A DNA stretch of 64,000 nucleotides. Source: Escherichia phage Sa157lw. This document shows, piece by piece, positions 1 to 44,704 of the stretch. Both the position numbers and the translations under genes were made by a program. Location of the stretch: the sequence record OK322699.1; one strand, written 5' to 3'. The notes under the pieces are model-generated. The model did not search any database. It had not been told where the DNA came from and worked only from the letters and a program-made list of their open reading frames with translations. Each line of letters begins with the position of its first letter. Position 1 is the first letter of the stretch.

Positions 1-842
1 TTAATAATGGTCACAATGGGGTTAAGTATGAAACCCCGTTGTTTTACCAAAACGATTTTCCTCTGTTCATCGAGTTCATGGACACGTTCTTTAATTGGCT
101 GTATCGGCAGCAGGGCTTCACTCAAGAAGAAATTTTGGCATATCTGGCAGACACTTCGAGTTGGATGAATCCTGAGAGTGAAGATTCACCTGTTAAACAA
201 CTCATAGATTTAAAGGCCGACAAAACGCCAGGTTCTGAAGCCAAAGATTATTTGTCAGATAAATTTTTGGTCAGAACATTTGAGAACATGATGGCTCTTG
301 ATGCCGAGATGCTGCTAGACGCTGATGGAAGGCCGTTGCTTTCTATTGAAGACAAGAACAAGCAGATAGACGACTGGTATAATGATTTTGGGTTTCAACG
401 AACTGTCGATAAATCATTTCAAGAATTTGGACATTTTATTCCAGTCGGTTCGGATTCTTTATTGACGGCCACGGGCGATACGTTCTCTGTTTATATTGAA
501 GGAACTAAACGAAGAACTCTGGATCATCCGCGTTGGCTGAAATTGTTGAAACACATCTATAAAATACGTGGAACAAAGAAAGCGATTGAATTGTTCTTTT
601 GGATATATTTCGGTTGTCCAGTCAGCGTCTATTTTACGAAAGAAGACATAGGCGGACTGGACGGAAATTTTGAATGTGACGGCACGACAGGGATGCGTGA
701 TGATTACTATTATGATGAATACACTTATGTTATAGGAGTCCCAGGCGACGTATCTGATTTTGAAGGTGTGTTTGAGCGCGTCTTCCGTCAGCATTTCCAT
801 CCTGCTGGATTTACTGTATTCCTAGAAAGCACAAGGAGCTAA
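1..842 (+). CDS. virion structural protein, 3' portion (gene begins upstream of window)
   Basis: Reading frame is open from the window edge; the listed start at 39 is an internal TTG. Sits immediately upstream of the fiber/tailspike cluster. No recognisable motif. Confidence 0.4.
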   Translation, partial: NNGHNGVKYETPLFYQNDFPLFIEFMDTFFNWLYRQQGFTQEEILAYLADTSSWMNPESEDSPVKQLIDLKADKTPGSEAKDYLSDKFLVRTFENMMALDAEMLLDADGRPLLSIEDKNKQIDDWYNDFGFQRTVDKSFQEFGHFIPVGSDSLLTATGDTFSVYIEGTKRRTLDHPRWLKLLKHIYKIRGTKKAIELFFWIYFGCPVSVYFTKEDIGGLDGNFECDGTTGMRDDYYYDEYTYVIGVPGDVSDFEGVFERVFRQHFHPAGFTVFLESTRS

Positions 843-844
843 AA

Positions 845-2035
845 ATGGCCGATTTCCTGAGTCAATATACAGGTCAGCAGATAGATCAGATATTGGGTTC
901 TGTTGACGACAAAGTAAGTAAAAACGACGTCATTGATGATTTTGAAGTCAGTGACCCATTGTTTCCGCCTTCTGCTCGCCTGACTTATGAGTTGAAAAGG
1001 TCTGTGGATACGATTAATGATACCCTGACCAACAAAGTTATAAGAACGGATAGTGGCGAACAGACAATCAACGGTAAGAAGACATTTAATGCGCTGTTGG
1101 TTACTAACGGGGGAATCCAAGTCCCCACTGGGAAATCTGTTTCAATCGCGGACGAACCAACCAACTCAACAGACGGTGTCAACCTGAGTATGTTGAGGAA
1201 ACATGGTGTCAGTGAAGACACCGCGCCAGATGGGTCTGGTTTGGCTGGGGAATTATTGACTTCCGGATATTACAAATTCAAACTGGATTTTAACAGATTG
1301 GCTGCGTATACGGAATTAACTCTCCCAACATCAGTTCCCGTGCAAACAGATTCTGGAGTTCGCACATGGTCAATGACTGCATTTTTTAATGCGTTATTTG
1401 CCGACAACCGTTTTAACGGTTATGTAACGACGACCACGTATGATGCCGACATGTTGAGTCTGGAGTCTCAGCTTAACAATATCAACACGACGTTGAACGG
1501 CAAAGTCAACACGTCAACTTACAACACAAAAATGGCTTCGTTGGATTTGAGTATATCCAACATTAACACATCTTTGAGCAACAAGGTTGAGGTCAGCACA
1601 TATAATACGAAGATGACTTCCTTGGACGGCAGTATCAGTTCTCTTACGACTGGTAAGGTCGATGTATCAACGTATAATGCCAAAATGGCCACAATTGATA
1701 ACAGTTTGGGGAACGCTGTTTATCGCACCAAAACAAACTTGTCATCACTGACGGTATCGGCTTCTGGAACAACAGCTCTGCCAGACTTTGATTTGGTGAA
1801 ACTTTGCCAGATATTGGTAACAGCACAATGGGGTACAGGAGATGTCGTAGACACATATCGAGTCACCATAACTCGAGATGGGACGATTAAGTCTGAGCTG
1901 CTGATCCAGAAAAGTACGAGCGGAACTGTGACGTTTACGGGTTCTGTAGTTGGTGGGAAACTGAGGATTTCTGTTGTCAATGCCAATACGACAACACCTT
2001 GCTCAGTCGATTATTCTATTACAGCATCTTTCTAA
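845..2035 (+). CDS. tail fiber-like protein with tandem repeats
   Basis: ATG at 845 with AAGGAG SD. Ser/Thr/Asn-rich with four ~25-aa repeats (VNTSTYNTKMASLDLSISNINTSLSNK and variants); position directly upstream of tailspikes. Confidence 0.55.
   Translation: MADFLSQYTGQQIDQILGSVDDKVSKNDVIDDFEVSDPLFPPSARLTYELKRSVDTINDTLTNKVIRTDSGEQTINGKKTFNALLVTNGGIQVPTGKSVSIADEPTNSTDGVNLSMLRKHGVSEDTAPDGSGLAGELLTSGYYKFKLDFNRLAAYTELTLPTSVPVQTDSGVRTWSMTAFFNALFADNRFNGYVTTTTYDADMLSLESQLNNINTTLNGKVNTSTYNTKMASLDLSISNINTSLSNKVEVSTYNTKMTSLDGSISSLTTGKVDVSTYNAKMATIDNSLGNAVYRTKTNLSSLTVSASGTTALPDFDLVKLCQILVTAQWGTGDVVDTYRVTITRDGTIKSELLIQKSTSGTVTFTGSVVGGKLRISVVNANTTTPCSVDYSITASF
1427..1745 (+). repeat. in-frame tandem repeats (about 4 x 24-27 codons) inside the fiber gene
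   Basis: Repeated protein motif xSTYNxKMxSLDxSIS visible in translation; boundaries approximate. Confidence 0.5.
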
Positions 2036-2037
2036 AA

Positions 2038-2077
2038 CTAAATACCCCTAGATGACATGAATACATTTAGGGGTATT
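2038..2077 (+). promoter_or_regulatory. late-promoter motif CTAAATACCCC (2038-2048) within a 10-bp perfect inverted repeat (2041-2050 / 2068-2077)
   Basis: AATACCCCTA and TAGGGGTATT are exact reverse complements; motif recurs upstream of other structural genes; ATG at 2082. Confidence 0.6.
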
Positions 2078-2081
2078 ACAA

Positions 2082-5000
2082 ATGGCCAACAAACCAACAC
2101 AGCCTCTTTTCCCTTTGGGTTTAGAAACTTCGGAGTCTTCGAACATAAAAGGCTTCAACAACTCCGGCACCATAGAGCATTCCCCTGGTGCAATATTGAC
2201 GTTCCCTGAAGATACTGATGTTGCGGGTCTCCCATCTTCTGTGCGTTACAATCCTGATAGTGATGAATTCGAAGGTTATTACGAAAATGGCGGGTGGTTG
2301 TCTTTGGGTGGTGGCGGAATACGCTGGGAAACGCTCCCATACGCTCCCTCCAGCAATCTGTTAGAAGGGCGCGGCTATCTCATTAATAACTCCACTGGGA
2401 CTTCTACGGTGGTTCTTCCTTCCCCTACGCGCGTTGGTGACTCGGTTACAATTTGTGATGCCTATGGTAAATTCGCGACGTATCCATTGACCGTATCTCC
2501 AGCGGGAAATAACCTGTACGGCTCCACCGAAGATATGACGATATCCACCGATAACGTGTCGGCGACTTTCACTTGGTCTGGTGCTGAGCAGGGTTGGGTT
2601 GTTACATCTGGTGTTGGCCTCGGTCAAGGTCGTGTGTACAGTCGAGAGATTTTCACTCAAATTTTAGCATCTGATACAAATGAAGTGACTCTCAACATCC
2701 CTCCGACAATTGTGGACGTGTACACTGATGGGAAACGCCTTACAGAATCCAAATATTCTTTAAATGGAAACGTAATCACTTTCGACCCTTCTTTACCTGC
2801 TGGCACTGAATTGCAGGTAATAGAATATACTCCGATTCAGTTAGGTACTGGCGGCGGGGGTTCGGGCGCTTCTGCAATCACCTGGATTTACAATGGCGGA
2901 TCCGCTATCGGCGGCGAAACCGAAATAACGCTAGACATCGTTGTAGATGATGTTCCGGCTATTGATATAAACGGGTCTCGTCAGTACAAAAATCTTGGAT
3001 TCACGTTCGACCCATTGACGAGTAAAATCACTCTGACGCAAGAACTGGAACCAGAAGATGAAGTTGTTGTGGTTATAAATGGGACACCAAACATTTATAA
3101 CCAGATCGATCGTTCTTTACAGGAAGTTGCTCGCGCCTACAATTTTACAAATGCTCAAGTTATTTTGAGCAACGATTATACTTCTGCACTGGATAATAAA
3201 GTCGTTATTTATGATACGACATCCCAACGTTCTTGGGGGATTCCATCTGGAATTCCAGCAGGTTCTACAGTGGTTTCCGTCAATGGGGATCAACTGAAAT
3301 ACAAAAATGGATCAACTGAAACCACTGTTACATTGGTGAGCGTACCAGGTAGTGCAGAGAAGTTGAAGAACGATCTGGCGTCGAACTCTGGCGCGGGCAT
3401 GTTGAAAACTTCTAGAGGTGATACCGTAGAAGAAGAATTGACTTTTATTAATCAGAATATGGTCGTTCAAATTTCAGATTTCGCGAGCCTTAGAACTTTA
3501 GTGCCAGCCACAGCGGGCATCCGAGTCAAATTGAAAGGTTATTATTCTGGTTCTGAAATCGGTGGCGGAGAATTCATTTCCGTCGCTGGTGATGCTGTTG
3601 ATGATGCTGGGATGATTGCTCGAGTGTCAAGCAGCTTTTATTGGAAGAGAATTATCGACAAACATATTACTCCTGGTATGTATGGCATCAAAGGGAATCT
3701 TCCAGAAGATCCGGCAGTGAAACTGAACGCTATGTTTACGGCTGCGGCTGCGGCTAACGCTTATGTCTTACTGAACGATGTTGATACTCTGGTCTGTAAA
3801 AGCCCTGTCGTGATCCCAGCACATTCATTAGTGTACGGCAACAAACGGACCATATTGAAACGTGATGCATCGTTGTCATATGCTAATGATTTCTTGACAA
3901 TTATGAATGATTCATATGTCAAGGGGATCTATGTTGATGGTAGCCGTTTAGATTCTCAGACTCCTCTAGAAGCAGTTTTGGTGCGCATCGCTGGGAATGT
4001 GACTATCCATAAGAGCGAGATCCGAAACAATGCTGGCTATGGCGTTGTTGGTAACGCAGTCCCTGGCATTCGTATCACCAAGAACATTTTTTCCAACTTC
4101 GCCAAAGGTTGTGTGGCTATGTTTGGCGACGGAACGGCGACGAGTGATGATCTGCAAATTAATGATAACAGATTCTTTAACCTGGGCGCGGGAACCATTT
4201 ATGTTGGCGGTTACTCAAACTTCCTTGTCGACAAAAACGTCGGAAGAGGCACTTACGTGGGTTCTCCAGGAAACCGTCTGTATGTTGTGACCAATACCAA
4301 CGGGACTATCACCCAAAGCGCTGGGCCAGATTTTGGGGCGCTGAAAACGGGTATGTTCTTTGTATTGCCTGGTGGTTCTGAACATATGATAACTGCTGTC
4401 AACAGCCTTACAAGTGTGACAGTAACCCCACCACCGCCGTCGAACGCCACAGTTCGTGCAATCGCAGGGACAGGGGATCTTCTGGGCATCCAATCATGCT
4501 CCTACGGCACCATCAGCCGTAACAACCTGACCGATTGTGTGACTTACGGAACTGGTGGAGGCACGATGGAGGGGAGCACTCTGGGTTGCAATTATGTCAC
4601 TTGGGAAGACAACTTCATCCGCAACACAGGTAAGAACGGAATCAACGTCGGGCAATCAGGTGCTGGGGTCGCCACGTGTTCTATCCTGAGGAACACTCTG
4701 ATACAGGTTGGTAACGGCGGTCAGGGTGTTGGCCCAGCGTATCTTCTGCCTTGGTTCGATACGGTAGGTATCGCTCTGTATCAGGGAAACCCAGGTTATA
4801 TGGCGAATATGGACGTCAGTGATAACAACGTCTCTACATGGTCTGGCGATCTGAATGACGGCGCTGCTTGGTTTGGTATGAGCGGTTGTACGGAAGCCAC
4901 TGTGACTTGTACAGGCAACAAATCTTCTGGTTATTCCGACGGCTATGTTCGTGGAGATATATTAGAAGTCACGTTGACAGGTTATGGTACAGGGGCGGCT

Positions 5001-5255
5001 GCGACTTCATTCGTTAGTGATGGTGAGTCTATACAGATAACCGTTCAAACAGGTACTTCACCAACAGCTTCTCCTTATTTTTCAGTGCGGAAGGCGATCC
5101 GCACCCGCCATCAACCGATGATAACGGCGCAGATCGTCACCACAACTGGGAACATGTCTCATTGTTGGGGTATGCAATCTAGTACAGCAGGAAACTGGAT
5201 GGTGGGTCAGAATACAACTCCTTCAGGGGTCACGACGTATTACGCAAAAGGGTAA
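2082..5255 (+). CDS. tailspike protein (1057 aa), T4 gp10-like N-terminal domains plus parallel beta-helix
   Basis: Shares an internal module with the 926-aa tailspike (DRSLQEVARAYNF...VVIYDTTSQ vs DRSIQEIARSANV...VVYDSAAQ); C-terminal NxGxG beta-helix-type repeats. Confidence 0.7.
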   Translation: MANKPTQPLFPLGLETSESSNIKGFNNSGTIEHSPGAILTFPEDTDVAGLPSSVRYNPDSDEFEGYYENGGWLSLGGGGIRWETLPYAPSSNLLEGRGYLINNSTGTSTVVLPSPTRVGDSVTICDAYGKFATYPLTVSPAGNNLYGSTEDMTISTDNVSATFTWSGAEQGWVVTSGVGLGQGRVYSREIFTQILASDTNEVTLNIPPTIVDVYTDGKRLTESKYSLNGNVITFDPSLPAGTELQVIEYTPIQLGTGGGGSGASAITWIYNGGSAIGGETEITLDIVVDDVPAIDINGSRQYKNLGFTFDPLTSKITLTQELEPEDEVVVVINGTPNIYNQIDRSLQEVARAYNFTNAQVILSNDYTSALDNKVVIYDTTSQRSWGIPSGIPAGSTVVSVNGDQLKYKNGSTETTVTLVSVPGSAEKLKNDLASNSGAGMLKTSRGDTVEEELTFINQNMVVQISDFASLRTLVPATAGIRVKLKGYYSGSEIGGGEFISVAGDAVDDAGMIARVSSSFYWKRIIDKHITPGMYGIKGNLPEDPAVKLNAMFTAAAAANAYVLLNDVDTLVCKSPVVIPAHSLVYGNKRTILKRDASLSYANDFLTIMNDSYVKGIYVDGSRLDSQTPLEAVLVRIAGNVTIHKSEIRNNAGYGVVGNAVPGIRITKNIFSNFAKGCVAMFGDGTATSDDLQINDNRFFNLGAGTIYVGGYSNFLVDKNVGRGTYVGSPGNRLYVVTNTNGTITQSAGPDFGALKTGMFFVLPGGSEHMITAVNSLTSVTVTPPPPSNATVRAIAGTGDLLGIQSCSYGTISRNNLTDCVTYGTGGGTMEGSTLGCNYVTWEDNFIRNTGKNGINVGQSGAGVATCSILRNTLIQVGNGGQGVGPAYLLPWFDTVGIALYQGNPGYMANMDVSDNNVSTWSGDLNDGAAWFGMSGCTEATVTCTGNKSSGYSDGYVRGDILEVTLTGYGTGAAATSFVSDGESIQITVQTGTSPTASPYFSVRKAIRTRHQPMITAQIVTTTGNMSHCWGMQSSTAGNWMVGQNTTPSGVTTYYAKG

Positions 5256-5265
5256 TATTGAATGC

Positions 5266-5302
5266 CTAAATACCCCATATTGGACATCCTTTATGGGGTA
5301 TT
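5266..5302 (+). promoter_or_regulatory. late-promoter motif CTAAATACCCC (5266-5276) within an 11-bp inverted repeat (5269-5279 / 5292-5302)
   Basis: AATACCCCATA / TATGGGGTATT exact reverse complements; right arm contains the GGGG SD of the ATG at 5306. Confidence 0.6.
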
Positions 5303-5305
5303 ATC

Positions 5306-7402
5306 ATGATTTCTCAATTCAATCAGCCACACGGCTCCACTTCAATATTTGTTAACAAACAATCTATCGCTCGAAATTTCGGTGTCAAAGAAGACGAAGT
5401 CGTTTATTTCACTGCTGGTATTGATCTCAGTGGATTTAAAGTAATTTATGATGAGTCTACCCAACGGGCTTATTCTCTTCCTTCGGGTATTGTTTCAGGA
5501 ACGACTGCGATAAGTCTGAACGAACAAGCCATCCTCACTCATTCCGCTGGCTCTGTTGACCTTGGGGAATTAGCAGTAAGCCGCGAAGAATATGTGACTT
5601 TACCTGGTTCTTTTAATTTCGGCCATACCATTAATGTGAAAAATGAACTTCTTGTTCACGATGATAAAAAATATCGATGGGATGGTTCACTTCCTAAAAC
5701 TGTCGATGCTGGCTCAACACCTGAAACATCTGGTGGCGTTGGTATTGGTACATGGCTGAGTGTTGGTGACGCAGCATTTAGACAGGAAGCCAACAAAAAA
5801 TTCAAATATTCAGTAAAGTTATCTGATTATTCTACATTACAGGATGCAGCGACAGCAGCCGTAGATGGATTGCTTATTGATGTTGACTACACTTTTACTG
5901 CAGATGAGAGTGTAGATTTTAGCGGTAAAGTTTTAATCATTGAATGCAAGGGAAAATTCATTGGCGATGGTATGTTGGTTTGGAATGGTTTGGGTGCGGG
6001 TTCAGTAATTAAGAAACCGCACATGCATACTAAAACTACGCCGTATACTGTTTACCGATTCGATGCAAACGGTAATTGGGTTACAGACCCAACACAAGTT
6101 CTGGCATCTGTTCAGCAGCGTTTGGATGTTGGATATAAGCCAAATATTAACGATTTAGATATTTGGGACGACCTTCCTGATAATGTAAAAAATCAGGTTG
6201 CTGGTGCTACTTTGCGAATAATGAGCGGCGATAATATCATCGTAGAGAACCCAGAAGCTACATTTGGTGGTTATCTATTTACTTTATGTAATAGGATTCT
6301 TGTTAAGAATCCACGCAATTTTATTGCTTTGGAATCGGGCATTACATTTGAGAACCATCATACAACTGCATGGGGTACTGGCAACTGGGTTGTTGGGGGT
6401 GAGATTAAATATGGCTCTGGTTCCGCTGTACTGTTCATTCGCAATGATGGTGGTACAGACCATGATGGTGGAGTAAGGGATTTAATATCCTATCGCGTTG
6501 GAGAATCTGGTGTTAAAACCTATCAAAATGAAATAGGTGGTCGTTCAGCCAGGAACTACCGTTTAGTGTTCGACAATATAACTACAATCCAGTGTTACTA
6601 TGATGGTATTGATGTTAATGCTGACACAGGGTCGCCAACTGAACGTGTGGATGACTACTCACTCGCAGAGTATCCATGGTTCCACCTACCTACTCAACAT
6701 ATCATCCGTAATATTATTACTCGTGATTGTATGGGGATTGGTGCTTGGTGGGATGGTCAGAAAAATATTATTGATAATGTTGTTACTTATGAGGCCCATA
6801 AGGAAGGCGTCTTCGATAGGGGTACTAACAATGATATTACTAACATTACTGTAGTAGGTGCGAATAAGGATTTAACTAACCTAAATCAGATTACCTGTGA
6901 GGGAGGTAGTAGACTTCGTGGTATTAACATCCATGCATATACTACACAAGGTTACGCTATATACGCTCCGTCTTCAGAAGTAAGTAATGTTTCCTGTGCT
7001 GGTTCCGGTACTAAGAAATTACTATGTACCTATATAAGCGATATTCAGGGAGGTAATATCAATGTTCAGCATAGTGCCAACCAAATGACACTTGCAATGC
7101 AACCTGCTATGGGTGGTACTACAAACCCATCTTTGCTTATGACGGCAGATTGCCAGGTTGCTACACCAGGGGGTGAGGCAAGTATTGTCAAGCTTTCGGC
7201 AATTCAGGAGGGTGTACGTGTAGGTGAGTTTCAGCTTAACCGCTTAGGCTTTAAGCATATGAGTATACCTGCTGCCCCTTTACAATTACCAGAGAGCGCT
7301 CTGGAACATAATTCATCTATAGGATTCTTCTTCGGAAGTGACGGAGCATTGAGGTTGCTTGCTAAAAAACCAGATGGAAGTTATGTAACATACACACTTT
7401 AA
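5306..7402 (+). CDS. tailspike protein (698 aa) with N-terminal anchor domain shared with the 596-aa tailspike
   Basis: First ~140 aa align with the 10338 gene (GSTS...IARNFGVKEDEVVYFTAG...QRAYSLPS vs GSTS...IARKFGCKKSEVVYAKAG...QRAYSLPS); divergent C-terminus. Confidence 0.65.
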   Translation: MISQFNQPHGSTSIFVNKQSIARNFGVKEDEVVYFTAGIDLSGFKVIYDESTQRAYSLPSGIVSGTTAISLNEQAILTHSAGSVDLGELAVSREEYVTLPGSFNFGHTINVKNELLVHDDKKYRWDGSLPKTVDAGSTPETSGGVGIGTWLSVGDAAFRQEANKKFKYSVKLSDYSTLQDAATAAVDGLLIDVDYTFTADESVDFSGKVLIIECKGKFIGDGMLVWNGLGAGSVIKKPHMHTKTTPYTVYRFDANGNWVTDPTQVLASVQQRLDVGYKPNINDLDIWDDLPDNVKNQVAGATLRIMSGDNIIVENPEATFGGYLFTLCNRILVKNPRNFIALESGITFENHHTTAWGTGNWVVGGEIKYGSGSAVLFIRNDGGTDHDGGVRDLISYRVGESGVKTYQNEIGGRSARNYRLVFDNITTIQCYYDGIDVNADTGSPTERVDDYSLAEYPWFHLPTQHIIRNIITRDCMGIGAWWDGQKNIIDNVVTYEAHKEGVFDRGTNNDITNITVVGANKDLTNLNQITCEGGSRLRGINIHAYTTQGYAIYAPSSEVSNVSCAGSGTKKLLCTYISDIQGGNINVQHSANQMTLAMQPAMGGTTNPSLLMTADCQVATPGGEASIVKLSAIQEGVRVGEFQLNRLGFKHMSIPAAPLQLPESALEHNSSIGFFFGSDGALRLLAKKPDGSYVTYTL

Positions 7403-7417
7403 TTTATCTTGAGCAAA

Positions 7418-7445
7418 AACCCCGCTTTGGCGGGGTTCTTATTAT
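7418..7445 (+). terminator. rho-independent terminator (AACCCCGC-TTTG-GCGGGGTT plus T-rich tail)
   Basis: Perfect 8-bp GC-rich stem directly after the stop at 7402. Confidence 0.6.
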
Positions 7446-7475
7446 ACCTTTGTTCATAAATTTTATTAGTTCAGA

Positions 7476-7513
7476 CTAAATACCCCATATTGGCAAATCC
7501 TTATGGGGTATTT
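7476..7513 (+). promoter_or_regulatory. late-promoter motif CTAAATACCCC (7476-7486) within a 12-bp inverted repeat (7478-7489 / 7502-7513)
   Basis: AAATACCCCATA / TATGGGGTATTT exact reverse complements; right arm contains the SD for the ATG at 7518. Confidence 0.6.
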
Positions 7514-7517
7514 TCAA

Positions 7518-10283
7518 ATGACCAGAAATGTAGAAGAATTATTCGGCGGCGTAATCACAGCTCCCCACCAGATTCCTTTCACGTATAAATCAAATGTCGG
7601 TGGAGAAACTTTCATTTCTCTACCTTTCTATCCTGTCGCTGGTGTTGTCACAATTAACGGCGGGGTGCAAGTTCCGTTAGACAACTTCGAAATAGACGGG
7701 AATACGTTAAACCTCGGGCGCGCATTGTCTAAAGATGACGTGGTTTATTGCCTGTTCGACAAAATCCTTTCACCAGAAGATACTTCTAAAGGTATTCGAA
7801 TATACAAATTTCAAGCCGTGGGTGGAGAAACTGAATTCACGCCTGACTTTACTTCTTATGGTGTCCAGTCTCTTTATATCGGTGGTGAGTACAAAACTCC
7901 TGATATAGAATATTCATACAACAGTACGACTGGGAAAGTTTCCTTACAAACTGCGCTGACTGCAGGGGTGTGGGTTGTTGCGGAGATGTCTGTTAAACAA
8001 CCGAATATCAGTCCGGCGTTCGATCGCAGTATCCAAGAAATTGCCCGTTCGGCTAACGTAAAAGACTCTGAAGTCATTGTCAGCACTGATACCATATCTT
8101 TACTCGACGACAAGAAAGTTGTTTATGATTCAGCGGCGCAGATTATTTATGGTTTACCAACTATCCCTGATGGTTCAGTGATTTCTTCTGTTAGTAATGG
8201 GCAACTTACTTATAATCCAGGTAATGTTGTAGTGGATTTGTTGCCTTTAGAAGATTCATTTATTAATGTGATAAACACTCTGGGGCGCAATGATGGTGCC
8301 AAGTATATCGGAGAATGCCATTCTGTTGCTGATCTCAGGAATACTGAACCCACTATGGATGGACAACGCATTATTCTTAAGCAACACACTGCGGGTACTC
8401 TTCTTGGTGGAGGGGTATTCCGTGCGTTAATTGATGGTACAGGAAAGACTGATGATAACGGCACTGTGATCAAAACTGTTGGAGGCGCAGCCTGGTTACG
8501 TGTTAATGCTGATAGAGTTAACCCATTCATGTTTGGTGCTTTGGGCGGTTCTAATGATGATACTATTCCAGTACAATCTTGTGTGGACAGTGGTAAGGCC
8601 ACACAATTAACTGGTGTACATTACGTTAGCAATATCCGGTTAAAATATAATACGTCGTCTATTTATGGGTCTGGATTACATTACTCCAGGTTGCATCAGT
8701 TGCCTTCTGCTACTGGGAATTGTATTACCATAAAAGATACATGCTCCCTTATTGTATTAGACTCCTTTGGGGTATATGGCACAGGTGCACAACAAGGCAC
8801 ATCATTTACTGCGGGTACAACAGGTATCTATATAGAAACTCCTTCAGGTCTCTCAGCTGATTATCCGTTCCACACTACCGCAGACCCAAGACGCGACTTG
8901 TGTATTTCTAAGGTCCATATAGCAGGTTTTGATGAATATGGGTTAAATATTGATAGTGGTAACTTTAGTGTTACTACAGATTCTCTTTTAGTCAACCACA
9001 TCAATCAGGTGGGCGTCCGTTGTGCTACTACTGATTGGACTTGGACAAATATCCAGGTTAATACCTGCGGTAAACAATGTCTGGTTCTTGATGGTTGTGG
9101 TAATGGTCGTATTATTGGTGGTAAATTCATTTGGGCTAACTGGCAACCTTATGGTACAGTAGGACAGTTCCCAGGCATTACTATTAATAATAGCCAGAAT
9201 ATGGTTATTAATGGTATTGAGGTACAAGATTGTGGCGGGAATGGCATTGAGATTAGCGATTCATATTCAATTTCCATGAACGGATTGAACACCAATCGTA
9301 ACGGCATCAACGCTAACAACACTTTCTACAACATCGTATTTAACAAAAGTGATGCAGTTATCAACGGATTCGTAGGACTCAATTATGCCGCGAATAGTGG
9401 TTCAGGTGCTAACTCTAGTGCGGGCAATTTTCAGTTCCTGTCTAATGATTGCAGCGTCACCATTAATGGTGTGGTTGAGACTGGTTATATGGGCATTAAC
9501 TTTATTGGTGATAACAATATTATCAACCCCACAAATTCCGACCTGAGCATTAACGGATTGGTTAATTATTCCAAGACTGGTTTGCAAACCATGAACGAGA
9601 CCCCTACATTTGATGGTGTTAGCACTACACCTGTTTATGTAAGTGTCCCATCTTCTGTAGGGCAAGTAAATGGTCTGAGACTATCACAAGCCAACAAAGA
9701 TAAATTACTGTACTCAAGAACAGCAGGTCCAGAAGGTATTACCATGGCTGCTGTTGTAGTACCTACCATATCTGGAGCTGAAGTATTTAACTTCATGGCC
9801 ATTGGTTCAGGGTTTAGTGATACATCCAACAGTCTTCATCTTCAATTAGTTATAGACGCTTCCGGAAAACAAACAATTGCTTTGCTATTGGGGGGCGATG
9901 GTACAACCCAAATTTTATCTGGGGATTTACCTAACGACCTTAAACTACAAAGTGGTGTGCCATATCATATAGCTATTGGTGCTAAACCTGGATATTTCTG
10001 GTGGAGTATTCTTAATATTCAGACGGGTAAGAGAATCAGACGGTCATTCCGAGGCGCTTATTTAGCTGTACCATTTAATTCTATATTCGGATTAACTTCT
10101 TCATTAACATTCTTCTCGGATAGCAATGCTGGTGGGGATGCCTGTTCTGGTGTAGGTGCTAAAGTGTATGTTGGTATGTTCTCTTCTGAGAATGATTATG
10201 TAGCTTCACGGTACTACAACCTGATTAATCCTGTAGACCCTAATAAGTTAATTAGTTACCGTATATTGGATTCTTCTATTTAA
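7518..10283 (+). CDS. tailspike protein (921 aa from ATG 7518), gp10-like domains plus parallel beta-helix
   Basis: ORF-track start 7503 lies inside the palindrome; ATG 7518 preferred. Beta-helix repeats (VINGIEVQDCGGNGIEISDS...). Shares module with the 1057-aa tailspike. Confidence 0.7.
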   Translation: MTRNVEELFGGVITAPHQIPFTYKSNVGGETFISLPFYPVAGVVTINGGVQVPLDNFEIDGNTLNLGRALSKDDVVYCLFDKILSPEDTSKGIRIYKFQAVGGETEFTPDFTSYGVQSLYIGGEYKTPDIEYSYNSTTGKVSLQTALTAGVWVVAEMSVKQPNISPAFDRSIQEIARSANVKDSEVIVSTDTISLLDDKKVVYDSAAQIIYGLPTIPDGSVISSVSNGQLTYNPGNVVVDLLPLEDSFINVINTLGRNDGAKYIGECHSVADLRNTEPTMDGQRIILKQHTAGTLLGGGVFRALIDGTGKTDDNGTVIKTVGGAAWLRVNADRVNPFMFGALGGSNDDTIPVQSCVDSGKATQLTGVHYVSNIRLKYNTSSIYGSGLHYSRLHQLPSATGNCITIKDTCSLIVLDSFGVYGTGAQQGTSFTAGTTGIYIETPSGLSADYPFHTTADPRRDLCISKVHIAGFDEYGLNIDSGNFSVTTDSLLVNHINQVGVRCATTDWTWTNIQVNTCGKQCLVLDGCGNGRIIGGKFIWANWQPYGTVGQFPGITINNSQNMVINGIEVQDCGGNGIEISDSYSISMNGLNTNRNGINANNTFYNIVFNKSDAVINGFVGLNYAANSGSGANSSAGNFQFLSNDCSVTINGVVETGYMGINFIGDNNIINPTNSDLSINGLVNYSKTGLQTMNETPTFDGVSTTPVYVSVPSSVGQVNGLRLSQANKDKLLYSRTAGPEGITMAAVVVPTISGAEVFNFMAIGSGFSDTSNSLHLQLVIDASGKQTIALLLGGDGTTQILSGDLPNDLKLQSGVPYHIAIGAKPGYFWWSILNIQTGKRIRRSFRGAYLAVPFNSIFGLTSSLTFFSDSNAGGDACSGVGAKVYVGMFSSENDYVASRYYNLINPVDPNKLISYRILDSSI

Positions 10284-10337
10284 AAATATACCCCTCTTCG
10301 GAGGGTATTTACTAGAGAAAAACAGGAGATTCTTATT

Positions 10338-12128
10338 ATGAATCCGCAATTTGCTCAACCGAAAGGTTCTACTTCAAAAGAAACGAACAAAGATAGCATT
10401 GCCCGTAAATTTGGGTGTAAAAAGTCGGAAGTCGTTTATGCCAAAGCAGGACAGTCCTTGTCTGGTTATAAAGTGATCTATGATAAGGTGTCTCAACGTG
10501 CCTATTCTCTTCCTTCTAACATTGATGCTGTAACGGTCACCAGTTTAGTTGACGGCATCCTTACGCACTCTGGAGGCACCGTAGATTTAAATGAATTGGC
10601 AATGACACGCCGCGAGTTTATTACTTTGCAAGGAGACTTTGTTTCCGGTGTTACCGTCAATGCTAAGCATGAAGTGATCGCATACGGAAATAGCCGATTC
10701 CGTTGGGACGGGGATCTGCCGAAAGTTGTTCCCCCTAATTCAGAACCTGTCATACCAGATTGGGTTAACGTTGATGCCAACCCAGCACTGTCTGAATTAG
10801 CGAAATCTGTTGGCTCGTCTCTGGTGGGATATAAACCAACGGGGACAACCACTACGACTGGTACGGTCAAAGGAAAATTGGATAGTTTTATTGATTTTGC
10901 AAATGACTATTGCGGTGGCCCAATTACAGGACAACCTGATCTCACTTCTCAATTACAACAAGCAATTATTGATGCTTTTAATTCTGGTATTGCCGACATT
11001 AAGATTGTTGGGGATTTTTATATATCTGGCATGATATTATGGTATCCAGGTGTTCGATTGATTGGTGGACGTTATGACTCTACATTGATACGCGTTTCCA
11101 ATACTTTCCCAGTGGGTGGGACAATGTTTCGTTCTTACCGTCCTCCACTGTGGGCGGCGGGTTGTCATGGTCTATCTCTTGAAAATGTGTATTTGGTAGG
11201 CCGCGCCGCCAAGGACGTTTATGGCATAGATATCAATGATGCATCTTATTTTAATCTTGAAGGTGTGCGTCTGGATCTGTTTGATAAAGCAATTTCTTTT
11301 AATAGATGGATTGATGAAACTCGTGTAGACACGAGCGGTACAATTACCTATCCCAACGCGCATAGTGCCGAAATGGGTGGCCAATCATATTTTGGTACAA
11401 TAACTCGTTGCTACGCAGGCAATTGCGTCACGTGCGTTGATTTTAATGGTGTGGTAAACCGTTGTACATTTATTAGCAACACATGGACAACTAGTGATCT
11501 GGCATATAATTTCAGCAACCCGCGTGGAGTTTATGAAACTAACACATTCATCACTTGTAATATTGAAGGTGTGAAGAGTGCATTTGAATGGTTCTTTTCT
11601 ATAAATTCACCATATCACAATGTGTGGATTAATACGAGCATCGATAACGGGAACCCAGATATCACGAGTTTAGCGAAAGATGGTGGTCGACAGACATTTA
11701 TTGGTTTAGCGATTTTCCCTTATGGAAACCCATCGTTGGTTAATTGGTATGGAATTAACCCCAATGGTCATCGGAGTACTGTCTTGGGTACTGATCTTGG
11801 GGAAAATTTACCAGAAGATCAGTTAAAAACTCAGGTTCGGGAAGAATTACACACTTTAACAGGTATTGCCAACAAGCAATGGGCTGGACAACAAGTAACT
11901 GAGACAATTCCCGCCAATGGTTACAAAGCATTGAATATTAGCGTGCCAGGATTAAAAGGTAACTCAGCAGTTATTGCTTCATTATCTGCCATATATCATG
12001 GTATTACAGTTGATGCCGCCAGCAACAACACTGGTACAGTTTCAGTAATAATAAGCAATTACACAGGTTCTCCAATTGATGTAAATGCTTACCTGAGTGT
12101 CACAGGCATAGCCAAAAGTTTCTTGTGA
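10338..12128 (+). CDS. tailspike protein (596 aa) with N-terminal anchor domain shared with the 698-aa tailspike
   Basis: ATG with CAGGAG SD; N-terminal homology to the 5306 gene; C-terminal region differs. Confidence 0.65.
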   Translation: MNPQFAQPKGSTSKETNKDSIARKFGCKKSEVVYAKAGQSLSGYKVIYDKVSQRAYSLPSNIDAVTVTSLVDGILTHSGGTVDLNELAMTRREFITLQGDFVSGVTVNAKHEVIAYGNSRFRWDGDLPKVVPPNSEPVIPDWVNVDANPALSELAKSVGSSLVGYKPTGTTTTTGTVKGKLDSFIDFANDYCGGPITGQPDLTSQLQQAIIDAFNSGIADIKIVGDFYISGMILWYPGVRLIGGRYDSTLIRVSNTFPVGGTMFRSYRPPLWAAGCHGLSLENVYLVGRAAKDVYGIDINDASYFNLEGVRLDLFDKAISFNRWIDETRVDTSGTITYPNAHSAEMGGQSYFGTITRCYAGNCVTCVDFNGVVNRCTFISNTWTTSDLAYNFSNPRGVYETNTFITCNIEGVKSAFEWFFSINSPYHNVWINTSIDNGNPDITSLAKDGGRQTFIGLAIFPYGNPSLVNWYGINPNGHRSTVLGTDLGENLPEDQLKTQVREELHTLTGIANKQWAGQQVTETIPANGYKALNISVPGLKGNSAVIASLSAIYHGITVDAASNNTGTVSVIISNYTGSPIDVNAYLSVTGIAKSFL

Positions 12129-19372: not shown

Positions 19373-20071
19373 ATGGCCAGACCATTTGAAAAATATTTCT
19401 ACCATGAATCGTTGTTGAAATACATTCATGTCTTCAACGCTATCATGTCAGATTTAAAAGTCAAAACCGAACGTGGCTTGATGGAAATCCCGCTGCATAT
19501 GGCTATTGGCCGTCGCAATGACCTCAACAGGAACGTGCCAGCCAATATGCTGCCATTTGCGACTATGTCCTTCGGTCAATTCGAAATTAATAAACAAGTG
19601 ACCAAGTCGTATCATAATCAGATATCGACTGCAACTGCGCGGTCCAAACAACGAATTCCGATCATTATAGATTTTGAATATAACATCAGAACGAAGAAAC
19701 TGGTCGAAATGCTACAGGTGTTGGAACAAATTTATTCTGTGTTCACTCCTTCTATTGATTGTCAGATAAAAGACAACGATACGTTATCTCAAGATCAAAA
19801 CGTGAAGATTATGTTGACATCCCATACCATTTCCGATAACTGGGAAGGGGATGCCGCTGAATCACCCCATATAGATTGCACCTTTAATTTTCAATTACAT
19901 GGGCACATTTATGGCGAAGATTATTGGGTCGATGACGGCTCTGGCGGTGGTGATCCGAACGTTATCAAAGAGATAATTATTGAAATGTCTAATGATTTGA
20001 ACACGCCATGGTCGGAACTGCCTGAGTGGTTCCGAGTTGACAAAGATGGCATACATCATCCGGAGGATTGA
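19373..20071 (+). CDS. gp15: tail sheath stabiliser / tail completion protein gp15
   Basis: Synteny and N-terminal pattern similar to T4 gp15. Confidence 0.7.
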   Translation: MARPFEKYFYHESLLKYIHVFNAIMSDLKVKTERGLMEIPLHMAIGRRNDLNRNVPANMLPFATMSFGQFEINKQVTKSYHNQISTATARSKQRIPIIIDFEYNIRTKKLVEMLQVLEQIYSVFTPSIDCQIKDNDTLSQDQNVKIMLTSHTISDNWEGDAAESPHIDCTFNFQLHGHIYGEDYWVDDGSGGGDPNVIKEIIIEMSNDLNTPWSELPEWFRVDKDGIHHPED

Positions 20072-20073
20072 TC

Positions 20074-20754
20074 ATGAGCAATATGTCAGAAAGGTTACTT
20101 GCGACGCTAGACGCGGTGACTGCCAGAGATGAAGTTGGTAAGGAGGCGATGGAAGCCGTCTCTCCACGTCCAGGTATTGACTTCGATGAAAAAACGGGCG
20201 AGTGGTTTGGTGAACGCCCAGAAGGTTATCAGCCGATTCCAGAACCTCCATCATTGGAAGATATCGCGTCCAAAGAATCCAAGGTTCCGGAGTTTGCGGA
20301 TACTGATGCCACAACAGATTACAAGCGGATACGCGATACAACATACGCCATGCAGGAAGCCACGATGTTCATGATGGGGCAAGCTGCTAAATTAGCTGCA
20401 TCTACCGAAGCCCCAAGAGCGTTTTCCGTGTTTCGTGAATTGGGCGAACTCATGCGCGGCCTGAACAAAGACCTGATGGAAAACCAAAAAACCATCAAAG
20501 CTGTGACAGGGGATAAAGAACCGCCGACTGATGACACAACCGTGGATGTTACCACTTCACCCGACGGGACCACAACAGTATCTGTTGGGAAGAAAGCGAG
20601 ATCTTCGCGCGATTTATTGAAAACGATCGAAGATGCACGCCGCCGCGCTGAAGAACGCGCCCAGGCAAAAGCCACCCAACAAACCGAAGATGAAATTATC
20701 GACGGTGAAACGGTTGACGTGAAGGAAGAAGACGATGGCGTATCAGAAGCGTGA
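20074..20754 (+). CDS. terS: terminase small subunit gp16
   Basis: ATG 20074 with GGAGG SD (ORF-track start 20068 is TTG). Central segment YAMQEATMFMMGQAAKLAASTEAPRAF resembles T4 gp16; acidic C-terminus. Confidence 0.7.
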   Translation: MSNMSERLLATLDAVTARDEVGKEAMEAVSPRPGIDFDEKTGEWFGERPEGYQPIPEPPSLEDIASKESKVPEFADTDATTDYKRIRDTTYAMQEATMFMMGQAAKLAASTEAPRAFSVFRELGELMRGLNKDLMENQKTIKAVTGDKEPPTDDTTVDVTTSPDGTTTVSVGKKARSSRDLLKTIEDARRRAEERAQAKATQQTEDEIIDGETVDVKEEDDGVSEA

Positions 20755-22945
20755 TATAGAATATGCTCCGATAAAAACGGGGTTTAAAATCGACGACGTG
20801 AAATTGCGTATGGACCAGACGTTCATGCGCAAGCCTTCTGTGCGCGCTCCACGAGTCGAGTTGATGCTAACAGATGAACAAGAAGACGAATTTGTTGAAT
20901 GTTCAATGGACGCGCATTACTTCGCTGCCAATTACTACAAGATAACGACAATCGATAAAGGCTTCATCCTTTTCGATATGCATGATTATCAGAAACAATT
21001 ATTTCACGATTTTCAAGATTATCGTTTCAATGCCGTTGTCCAGGCGCGTCAGTCCGGTAAATGCGTCCGTGGTGATACTCTTGTTTATGTCTATGATACA
21101 GTCAGTCAACAAGAGTTGCATCTCACCATAGAAGAGCTTCACAAGCGCTTCGAAGGACCGAACCATGCTGTGCCACTGAATACCATTGGCAACCACAATA
21201 AGTTTGTAGACAGCCGTTTCGGGAAACGATATTTTGTTGAGTCCGACACTGGCTGGGTTCCGGTTATTGCCGCTCATAAAACGAAAGAATACGCTGAATA
21301 CGTGGTCAGGACTGAAACCGGACGCACAATTCATGTCGCAGATGAGCACATGTTCTTCAATGAATATGGGCGCGAAGTATTTGCTAAAGACATGGAGGCC
21401 GGAGATGCCATAATGACCCAGGAGGGAATAGAATTCATCTCTGAGATCTGGGAGACTGGTGAGTACCACCACATGTATGACTTGCAAGTCAAGTCCAGCG
21501 ATCAACGTTATTACACGAATGGGTTCCTCAGCCATAATACCACGGTCGTGGCTGCGTTTCTTCTTTGGTATGCGATGTTCCACTCAGACAAAGAAATCGC
21601 GGTACTGGCAAACAAAGAGAAACAAGCGATTGAAATTCTTGACCGTATCAGGAAGGCGTATCAGGACCTCCCATTCTTCCTTCAGCAGGGTTGTGAGAAG
21701 TTTGGTTCTACACTGATAGAGTTTGAGAACGGCTCTAAGATATATGCTTATGCAACGTCTTCGGACTCTATTCGTGGTCGTTCTGTATCTCTCTTGTACG
21801 TGGACGAAGTCGCATTCATCGAAAATGACTTTGAATTTTGGGAATCAACATTCCCAGCGATCGCATCTGCTGATACTTCACGTTGTATTCTGACCAGTAC
21901 TCCGAAAGGCCAGCGAGGGTTGTTCTATGATATCGTCACCAAAGCAGACCCGCGCCATCCGCAATACAACGACTTCCATCTTACCGAAGTCCCTTGGTAC
22001 AAGGTTCCGGCGTACACCAAAGACCCTGATTGGGAAACCAAACAACGCGCTCGTCTGGGGGATGCCCGTTTTGACCAGGAATTTGGAATCAAGTTCCGTG
22101 GTTCTGTAGGTTCATTGATACCAGCCAAATGCTTGGATAAAATGACATCCAAGTTATATCGAGAGCCTAATGAGTTCACCAAAATTTACAAGGAATATGA
22201 CCCGCAACGCATCTACTTCGGGATCGCAGATACGGGGAAAGGTGTTGAAGGAGATTATTCGGTTCTGACAATTCTGGATATAACGGAATACCCGCATGTC
22301 ATAGCGGCCAAGTACAGGAACAATACAATACCTCCGATGATGTATGCATACACGATAGCTGATATGTGTACTGAATACGGGGAATGCCCTGTCCTTGTCG
22401 AGACGAATAACGACGTTGGTGGACAGGTTATCACGATCTTGTATCAAGAAATTGAGTATCCAGAGATCATATTCACGTCGACGGATAACAAAGGGACAGG
22501 GAAACGGATTGGTGGTCGTAAACCAGAGCCAGGCATTAACACCAACAGGAAAGTGCGATCTATTGGTTGTGCTAACCTGAAAGCGCTTATTGAGAAAGAA
22601 ATGTTGGTGATTGAAGATCAAGACACGATAGATGAACTCAGCACATTCGTGTTCCGTGGTGCGCGTTATGAAGCAGATGATGGATGTCACGACGACTGCG
22701 TTATGCCGTTGGTATTATATTCTTGGGCAGTTAAACAAGAATGGTTCAGTGATCTGACTTCTACCAGTATTTCTCAAGACATGAGAAATAGAATGTCTTC
22801 GACTGAGTCACAACAAGTATTCCCATTTGGTGGTTTAGTCGTGGGAGACACTCCATCTGGAACTGAGCATCTCCCTGGGTTCGGTGGTGTTCAAGTCTTC
22901 GACGAACGTTCAGGGATGACAATGGACGAGTGGTTTAAGAATTGA
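20735..22945 (+). CDS. terL: terminase large subunit gp17, interrupted by an intein
   Basis: Aligns with T4 gp17 on both sides of a 159-aa insertion: Walker A appears as QSGK...TTVVAAF; downstream YAYATSSDSIRGRSVSLLYVDE matches the T4 Walker B region. Confidence 0.9.
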   Translation: MAYQKRDIEYAPIKTGFKIDDVKLRMDQTFMRKPSVRAPRVELMLTDEQEDEFVECSMDAHYFAANYYKITTIDKGFILFDMHDYQKQLFHDFQDYRFNAVVQARQSGKCVRGDTLVYVYDTVSQQELHLTIEELHKRFEGPNHAVPLNTIGNHNKFVDSRFGKRYFVESDTGWVPVIAAHKTKEYAEYVVRTETGRTIHVADEHMFFNEYGREVFAKDMEAGDAIMTQEGIEFISEIWETGEYHHMYDLQVKSSDQRYYTNGFLSHNTTVVAAFLLWYAMFHSDKEIAVLANKEKQAIEILDRIRKAYQDLPFFLQQGCEKFGSTLIEFENGSKIYAYATSSDSIRGRSVSLLYVDEVAFIENDFEFWESTFPAIASADTSRCILTSTPKGQRGLFYDIVTKADPRHPQYNDFHLTEVPWYKVPAYTKDPDWETKQRARLGDARFDQEFGIKFRGSVGSLIPAKCLDKMTSKLYREPNEFTKIYKEYDPQRIYFGIADTGKGVEGDYSVLTILDITEYPHVIAAKYRNNTIPPMMYAYTIADMCTEYGECPVLVETNNDVGGQVITILYQEIEYPEIIFTSTDNKGTGKRIGGRKPEPGINTNRKVRSIGCANLKALIEKEMLVIEDQDTIDELSTFVFRGARYEADDGCHDDCVMPLVLYSWAVKQEWFSDLTSTSISQDMRNRMSSTESQQVFPFGGLVVGDTPSGTEHLPGFGGVQVFDERSGMTMDEWFKN
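21062..21538 (+). mobile_element. mini-intein (159 aa) inserted in the terminase P-loop
   Basis: Begins CVRGDTLV, ends GFLSHN followed by +1 Thr; block B-like TGRTIHVADEH; block G-like YDLQVKS...NGFLSHN; no endonuclease domain. Confidence 0.8.
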
Positions 22946-43433: not shown

Positions 43434-43465
43434 AACAGAGGCTATAATGGCCTCTGTTTTTGTAT
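43434..43465 (+). terminator. terminator hairpin (ACAGAGGC-TATAATG-GCCTCTGT plus T-run)
   Basis: Perfect 8-bp stem followed by TTTTTGTATT. Confidence 0.55.
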
Positions 43466-43480
43466 TCTAGAGAGGATACC

Positions 43481-44704
43481 ATGAAAGATAAACCGTGTGA
43501 CATTCCTTATTGCGGTGTTCGGGAAACCAAAATTAAATCTGCACACCCCACGTTAAGTCCATTCCATAAACAACTCGCATACGAATGGATGAGCGAGCGC
43601 TATAAGATCCACGTGAGAAAGGACGTCCAACGTCTTCCTGCTCCTTGGACGGATAATCCCATACTACGGCAGGTCAAGTTCTGTAACGTCCGGAGAGAGC
43701 ACGACAGGCAGTCTCTTAACCTGATCAACAATATCGTCAAGAACGATGCTCTGGGCATTGCCGACAAGATGTTCAACTGTGTTCTGTTCCGCATGTTCAA
43801 CCTCTGGGACCCGATCAAGGCTATCGGTGACGCTCGTACTATCAAAGAGTTCGCAAACATCGATCTTGATGCAACCCGCAAAAGTCTTCAGGAATTTGAG
43901 GCCAACGGTGGTAAGATCTTCACCAATGCCTTCAACACAGGCGGTCTAAAGCAGTGTCTGGCGTTCCCCGAACTCGTTGTCAACCACAAGGAGCAGCGCT
44001 TTGGTGGTATGATGGTTAAGGTACACCGTGTTGGCCAGGGTATCGTTGATGAATTGGATTACAAGGTCGCCAAGAAGCTGGTTGAAGAAAATCCTGGGGA
44101 GTACACGATCGAGGGCTGGGAGCCGTACATGCCGATGCGTGTTATCCGTTCCCTGAAGGCATTTGTCAACAAGTATCCTGATTATTTCAATGATCTTTTA
44201 CGTCTTGACTCTCCGCTGAAAGTTTACCAGCGCATGTATGACGACATTGAAGGGCTTGGGCCATTCCTGGCATATCAGATATGGGTGGACTTCACATACA
44301 TCCCTGAGTATCCATTCAGTGAGAATCACTTCACCATCGCTGGCCCAGGTTGCCGTGCGGGTATTGACCTGATGTTCCTGGATAAGGACGGTATGACTCA
44401 TGAAGAGTGCATCTTCTGGGTTCGAGATCACCAGTATCAATTGTTTGCCCAGTATGGTTATGTCCAAGAGCAGTTCTGGTCAGCCGAAGCGCCGGAAGAT
44501 CAGTGCATGAATGTCATGCAGCTGGAGAACATGTTCTGTGAATTGAGCAAGTACACCCGCTGTGTTGAGGCCATTGAGAGAGGGGAAAAGCCACGCGGCA
44601 AGGTCGGTTACGATGGAGGCGGAGAATACAAAAAGCGGTGCGATGAAGTTGTCCTCAAACGCGGTTCCGTCAATTTGTTAGATCGTTTGAAGAAACCTGA
44701 ATAA
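43481..44704 (+). CDS. hypothetical protein (407 aa), Cys-containing N-terminus
   Basis: ATG 43481 with GAGAGGA SD; KPCDIPYCGV N-terminus; no family recognised. Confidence 0.45.
   Translation: MKDKPCDIPYCGVRETKIKSAHPTLSPFHKQLAYEWMSERYKIHVRKDVQRLPAPWTDNPILRQVKFCNVRREHDRQSLNLINNIVKNDALGIADKMFNCVLFRMFNLWDPIKAIGDARTIKEFANIDLDATRKSLQEFEANGGKIFTNAFNTGGLKQCLAFPELVVNHKEQRFGGMMVKVHRVGQGIVDELDYKVAKKLVEENPGEYTIEGWEPYMPMRVIRSLKAFVNKYPDYFNDLLRLDSPLKVYQRMYDDIEGLGPFLAYQIWVDFTYIPEYPFSENHFTIAGPGCRAGIDLMFLDKDGMTHEECIFWVRDHQYQLFAQYGYVQEQFWSAEAPEDQCMNVMQLENMFCELSKYTRCVEAIERGEKPRGKVGYDGGGEYKKRCDEVVLKRGSVNLLDRLKKPE

Follow-up and report, generated by a model that had tools for sequence, protein, structure and literature searches.

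Does the large terminase subunit (TerL) of Escherichia phage Sa157lw carry an intein inside its ATP-binding loop, and, if so, what does that element mean for DNA packaging? A mini-intein splitting the Walker A motif had been predicted from a 64,000-nt stretch of this phage's genome (OK322699.1; all 64,000 nt are termed "the window" below). The window derives from a Vi01-like Kuttervirus (Ackermannviridae); over the TerL region, its DNA is 99.5% identical to that of Salmonella phage Vi01 and 99.3% identical to that of phages Marshall and Maynard. The gene for the T4 gp17-like TerL precursor lies at 20735-22945 on the plus strand (736 codons plus a stop), as judged from the list of open reading frames, Pfam and the identity to Vi01. 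Its product matches Terminase_6N (E = 3e-16) and Terminase_6C in Pfam. The order of genes around it is T4-like (gp14 neck, gp15, the small terminase TerS, TerL, tail sheath), and the 3' end of the TerS gene (20068-20754) shares 20 nt with the start of the TerL gene. Elsewhere, the window begins with a large tailspike-type gene cluster (39-12128) that includes a P22-type tailspike (5306-7402). A 5-hmdU DNA kinase gene is present at 43460-44704; this kinase belongs to the pathway by which ViI-like phages hypermodify thymidine. The 64-kb window has no tRNA genes.

The insert in the TerL reading frame is in frame and comprises 477 nt (159 codons; 21062-21538, plus strand), i.e. precursor residues Cys110-Asn268. 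These limits were supported by profiles, by a structural model and by the same boundaries in GenBank. The N-extein (20735-21061, plus strand; residues 1-109) was delimited by alignment with intein-free homologues and by empty sites at the DNA level; it terminates in ARQSGK, the first half of Walker A. Its final codon, AAA (Lys109; 21059-21061), is followed directly by TGC (Cys; 21062-21064). At the 3' junction, CAT-AAT (His-Asn; 21533-21538) is followed by ACC (21539-21541), the codon of the +1 Thr. The C-extein (21539-22942, plus strand; residues 269-736), assigned from Pfam and the alignments, starts at Thr269 in TTVVAAF and contains the remaining ATPase domain and an RNaseH-like nuclease domain. 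The coordinates, the lengths and the junctions of the original prediction (ARQSGK/CVRGDTLV and GFLSHN/TTVVAAF) all proved exact when the DNA was read.

That this segment is an insertion was established by comparison with homologues that do not have it. The conceptually spliced 577-aa TerL was used as the query, and homologues of 575-581 aa were recovered alongside intein-bearing ones of 735-738 aa. Among the intein-free proteins, one (P0010) is 85% identical to the window TerL, and four (P0013-P0016) are 74-77% identical. In the alignment, ARQSGK-TTVVAAFL is contiguous in P0010, P0013-P0016, P0018, P0021, P0023 and P0113, whereas the window protein has its 159-aa segment at that point. The neighborhood of the intein-free TerL gene is syntenic (DUF4815 protein, gp13, gp14, gp15, TerS, TerL, sheath, tube, portal). 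At the DNA level, presence or absence of the intein is codon-precise, falling between the Lys and Thr codons. TerL genes with the empty site occur in Ackermannviridae-like metagenomic contigs (L009, 1660-3390; L010 and L011, 6001-7746), and the alleles in these contigs are 85% and 77% identical to the window exteins. No cultured close relative without the intein was present among the matches listed. Thus, related TerL proteins lack the segment; they do not carry it as a part of the fold.

The same conclusion was reached with T4 gp17, in which Walker A is essential. Spliced TerL matched the T4 gp17 structures with E = 5e-76 over 490 residues; T4 gp17 aligns SRQLGKTTVVAIF to spliced TerL, uninterrupted across the insertion site. 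In the sequence of structure 3ezk, SRQLGKTTVVAIFL stands opposite ARQSGKTTVVAAFL of spliced TerL, in agreement with the P-loop alignment given in the prediction. T4 gp17 is 610 aa in length, which makes the 736-aa product 126 aa longer, as had been calculated.

Several methods consistently identified the insert as an intein. It scored 26.8 bits against the NCBIfam profile TIGR01445 (intein_Nterm), above the cutoff of 24.5; the match to TIGR01443 (intein_Cterm) was weak (11.9-13.4 bits vs. a cutoff of 15.6). As a single sequence, it matched Pfam Intein_splicing with E = 3.9e-8 and 33.7 bits, slightly under the gathering score of 35.8. When the insert was compared to PDB sequences using phmmer, the gp41-1 intein was matched, with GRTIHVADEHMF aligned to GKEIICSEEHLF and YDLQVKSSDQRYYTNGFLSHN aligned to IDIEVS-GNHLFYANDILTHN; blocks B, F and G align in the way originally proposed. 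A search of a 5.8-billion-protein index with the insert alone returned only two proteins, of which one was the annotated intein of Maynard/Marshall and the other a fragment, and was uninformative on distribution. An alignment of inteins was instead assembled from the TerL matches; it comprised 18 homologous inserts that are 32-79% identical to that of the window. The profile made from these 18 inserts matched VidaL (E = 2e-10) and gp41-1 (E = 4e-10) in the PDB.

The HINT fold was established by structural comparison. An AlphaFold2 model calculated from the 18-insert alignment had a pLDDT of 95.7 and a pTM of 0.88. The best 50 Foldseek matches of this model in the PDB were all intein/HINT structures (VidaL, Mtu RecA, gp41-1, Npu DnaB, Pho RadA and others), with a best E of 7e-11 and TMq values up to 0.78 (the Pho RadA mini-intein) across the whole length. 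For VidaL (6vgv), gp41-1 (6qaz) and the Pho RadA mini-intein (4e2u), E ranged from 7e-11 to 4e-7 and TMq from 0.69 to 0.78; blocks B, F and G of all three can be aligned with the window intein, although the identity is only 16-20%. Relative to gp41-1, the window intein has ca. 30 extra residues. All that it has beyond the smallest inteins is a pair of short helices in its N-terminal lobe (residues 23-43). The Pho RadA mini-intein also sits at a P-loop GK/T.

The catalytic residues are all in place. Block A is CVRGDTLV, and its Cys1 (precursor Cys110) is invariant in the 18 homologues. Block B is GRTIHVADEH, with an invariant His96 (intein numbering). The Thr of the TxxH motif in this block is replaced by Ala93 (ADEH), and ADxH is found in all 18 homologues; VidaL likewise has Ala for Thr in its block B (AFNH). 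Block F is HMYDLQV, with Asp140, and block G is NGFLSHN, with His158-Asn159. The residues that are invariant in the 18 homologues are C1, A93, D94, H96, D140, S157, H158 and N159; in the TerL alignment, the Walker A Thr (Thr269), which serves as the +1 nucleophile, does not vary either. Under the intein class definitions (PMC2807308), the element belongs to class 1 and not to class 2 or 3, because position 1 is a Cys and block F has Asp140 where class 3 has a Cys; position 5 of block G is Ser157, and the WCT triplet of class 3 is absent. The predicted Cys start, His-Asn end and Thr+1 of a class-1 intein are therefore all present.

The element is confirmed as a mini-intein, as had been predicted: it has 159 aa, within the range of ca. 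130-200 aa for such elements, and no LAGLIDADG, HNH or GIY-YIG domain. No endonuclease family of Pfam was matched by any of the 18 homologous inserts, and the 43 residues between His96 and Asp140 are all HINT beta strands in the model. Nor did a Pfam comparison of 10 large and 20 mid-sized open reading frames of the window reveal another intein or any homing endonuclease gene. An antisense reading frame of 194 aa (20999-21583, minus strand) closely matches the intein in extent and was considered as a hidden gene, e.g. for an endonuclease. It was attributed to chance, because its limits are not conserved in Cba120, Magnus, Ds25CZ and L008 and because this frame is open in long stretches throughout the gene.

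The TerL mini-intein is already annotated and published, and the finding as stated is not new. In GenBank, the Marshall entry (KF669653) describes an "intein from Cys110 to Asn268" and places mat_peptide features at the corresponding positions. The same intein is annotated in Maynard (KF669654), Mooltan (MH688040) and Klebsiella phage Magnus (NC_049462). The Marshall intein DNA has 0 differences in 477 nt compared to the window, the protein is 100% identical in Marshall and Maynard, and the Magnus intein, at the same site, is 84% identical; there is no difference of substance between these four inteins and that of the window. Luna et al. (2013; PMC3853055) reported that the large terminase of Marshall, unlike that of T4, is interrupted by an intein, and the genome announcement of Magnus describes its TerL gene as likewise interrupted. 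Most other records of the gene, such as that of Vi01, leave the intein unannotated. The word "intein" did not turn up in the comparative papers and reviews on the Ackermannviridae that were retrieved; the feature therefore appears to be under-noticed, though not new.

In mycobacteriophages, TerL is the commonest intein host, and the site between the P-loop Lys and Thr has been termed "classic" (Kelley et al., 2016; PMC5050341). The mycobacteriophage TerL1-a intein of that study resembles the window intein in its GK/T site, with the Walker A Lys before it and the nucleophilic Thr after it, and in its class 1 chemistry. A further likeness is that the mycobacteriophage TerL exteins bind nucleic acid after splicing. 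The host proteins differ: that of the window is a Terminase_6 (T4 gp17-type) TerL of a Gram-negative myophage. By their published descriptions, a HEN domain can be recognized in TerL1-b and TerL1-c, and both cleave DNA (PMC5050341), whereas the window intein has no such domain.

Taken as a whole, the locus is best explained by a canonical, endonuclease-less class-1 mini-intein that is lodged between Lys and Thr in the TerL P-loop, most probably splices constitutively and behaves as a selfish passenger; a probability of roughly 93% is assigned to this reading. From the sequence comparisons, we infer splicing of the TerL intein and its kinetics. After translation, Cys1 would undergo an N-S acyl shift, and Thr+1 would then attack the resulting thioester. 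Cyclization of Asn159 would free the intein, and an O-N shift would link Lys109 to Thr269. Splicing is predicted to restore ARQSGKTTVVAAF and thereby to yield an active packaging ATPase/nuclease of 577 aa. With its Walker A Lys and Thr held apart by 159 residues, TerL could not bind ATP, and, as TerL is essential, the precursor must mature. The intein is matched in 319 phage records, many of which are cultured Ackermannviridae isolates, and the TerL DNA matches a single place per record in 217 records. Compared to the Magnus allele, the intein has a pN of 0.093 and a pS of 0.725, and it is therefore under purifying selection. Splicing is strongly implied by these three observations together. 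It would most probably be fast and constitutive, and the intein would therefore act as a neutral, selfish passenger, at an insertion site that the phage probably cannot afford to lose imprecisely.

There is an outside chance that the intein does more than ride along passively: conditional splicing might gate the onset of packaging, or the intein might be a hotspot for allele exchange among co-infecting members of different Ackermannviridae subfamilies. The allele-exchange part has direct support in the data; the regulatory part, which would be truly new, has none. The histories of the intein and the exteins disagree. The window phage and Cba120 (both Kuttervirus) have exteins that are 99-100% identical, whereas their intein proteins are only 78.6% identical. 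Nei-Gojobori pS between the Vi01-type and the CBA120-type is 0.78 for the intein vs. 0.54-0.59 for the exteins; however, the cleaner test of separate origins at four-fold degenerate sites gave 28/50 differences in the intein vs. 103/236 in the exteins, which is not significant (p = 0.12).

A clearer disagreement is found in the Aglimvirinae. Ds25CZ, SKML-39 and EspM4VN have one common intein allele (97-99%), and the exteins of A221 and of the metagenomic contig L008 are 94-96% identical to those of these three phages. The A221/L008 intein, however, is of the CBA120-type (96-97% at the amino-acid level), while the A221/L008 exteins are only 87-88% identical to those of Cba120. When Cba120 and L008 were compared at four-fold degenerate sites, 10/63 differed in the intein and 119/206 in the exteins (Fisher p = 3e-9). 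In window coordinates, the tract of low divergence extends over ca. 20984-21463 and has 19 mismatches in its 480 nt, vs. 395 in 1731 nt outside it; it starts ca. 78 nt upstream of the N-junction and stops shortly before the conserved block F/G region. These data indicate that the intein core was passed by recombination between a CBA120-type Kuttervirus and an A221-like member of the Aglimvirinae, although the intein encodes no endonuclease. The direction was probably from Kuttervirus to the A221 lineage. The recorded hosts overlap (E. coli for Cba120, A221 and other close relatives of L008; Salmonella for the closest relative of L008).

A free-standing gene for a 292-aa NUMOD3 homing endonuclease is located in the gap between TerS and TerL in SKML-39 (L013, 1309-2187) and Ds25CZ (L004, 1309-2187). 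The window has no NUMOD3 gene, and TerS and TerL overlap there. Such an endonuclease could drive gene conversion around TerL. Co-conversion with this gene was nevertheless not supported as the cause of the intein exchange: ca. 230 nt of ordinary divergence lie between the exchanged tract and the TerS/TerL junction, and the gene is absent from both Cba120 and L008.

The regulatory possibility can be stated more specifically. The intein would be a switch, with splicing that depends on some condition (e.g. redox state, temperature, DNA or the availability of procapsids) and that thus times or gates packaging; this is judged to be very unlikely. Its position in the P-loop guarantees a precursor without ATP binding, it is under purifying selection and nearly universal in cultured Ackermannviridae, and some other P-loop inteins, such as those of RadA and RecA, are known to splice conditionally. 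However, since an imprecise loss from the P-loop would be lethal, retention can be accounted for just as well without a switch. The sequence contains no sensor and no extra domain. Cys1 is the sole cysteine of the TerL intein, and there can be no intein-internal disulfide trap because there is no second one. The syntenic relatives have intein-free TerL alleles, and the intein is therefore dispensable for the packaging machinery. Finally, other TerL inteins splice efficiently, rapidly and constitutively in reporters (Kelley et al., 2016; PMC5050341). The prediction that packaging is conditional on splicing thus holds only in the trivial sense that the P-loop of the precursor is broken; there was no sign that splicing is regulated.

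It is scarcely credible that the insert is instead an accessory domain that stays in the mature TerL, or that it is a Hint or bacterial intein-like (BIL) domain that has degenerated and lost the ability to splice. Although excision is deduced and the single-sequence Pfam score is marginally sub-threshold, the GK/T that is split here is contiguous in T4 gp17 and all intein-free homologues. Every splicing residue, the +1 Thr among them, is invariant even in the diverged homologues, and TerL is a single-copy, essential gene in many viable isolates.

Other insertions were encountered in related genes. Vibrio phage VP-1 (L006, 1985-4201) has an annotated 738-aa TerL with a longer intein at the same site; in the intact homologue P0029, the intein is 179 aa. 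The VP-1 TerL becomes GIY-YIG-like after FDQEYDC, and an insertion that bears an endonuclease therefore seems to split the gene; the next coding sequence is labeled as a terminase-like family protein. One metagenomic TerL (P0120) has two inteins, one at the P-loop site and one adjoining Walker B (GKS/C...SHN/CALLYLDE), and another (P0106) has only the Walker B-adjacent intein; there are therefore several insertion sites of the TerL6 type. Distant relatives of the intein (ca. 31% identity over the C-terminal 100 aa) are found in the jumbo phages PA5oct (MK797984) and Cassandra (OR805292), in genes annotated as a structural protein and a UvsX-like recombinase.

The value of the finding lies mainly in annotation. 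In most GenBank records of Vi01-like phages, the 736-aa product is named only as the large subunit of the terminase, and the mature 577-aa TerL and the 159-aa intein are therefore unmarked. For expression or modeling of this TerL, residues 110-268 should be removed. The element may be of use in protein engineering as a compact Cys1/Thr+1 mini-intein, although many such inteins exist. The evidence that an endonuclease-less intein core was exchanged between phage subfamilies adds a little to what is known of how mini-inteins persist and spread.
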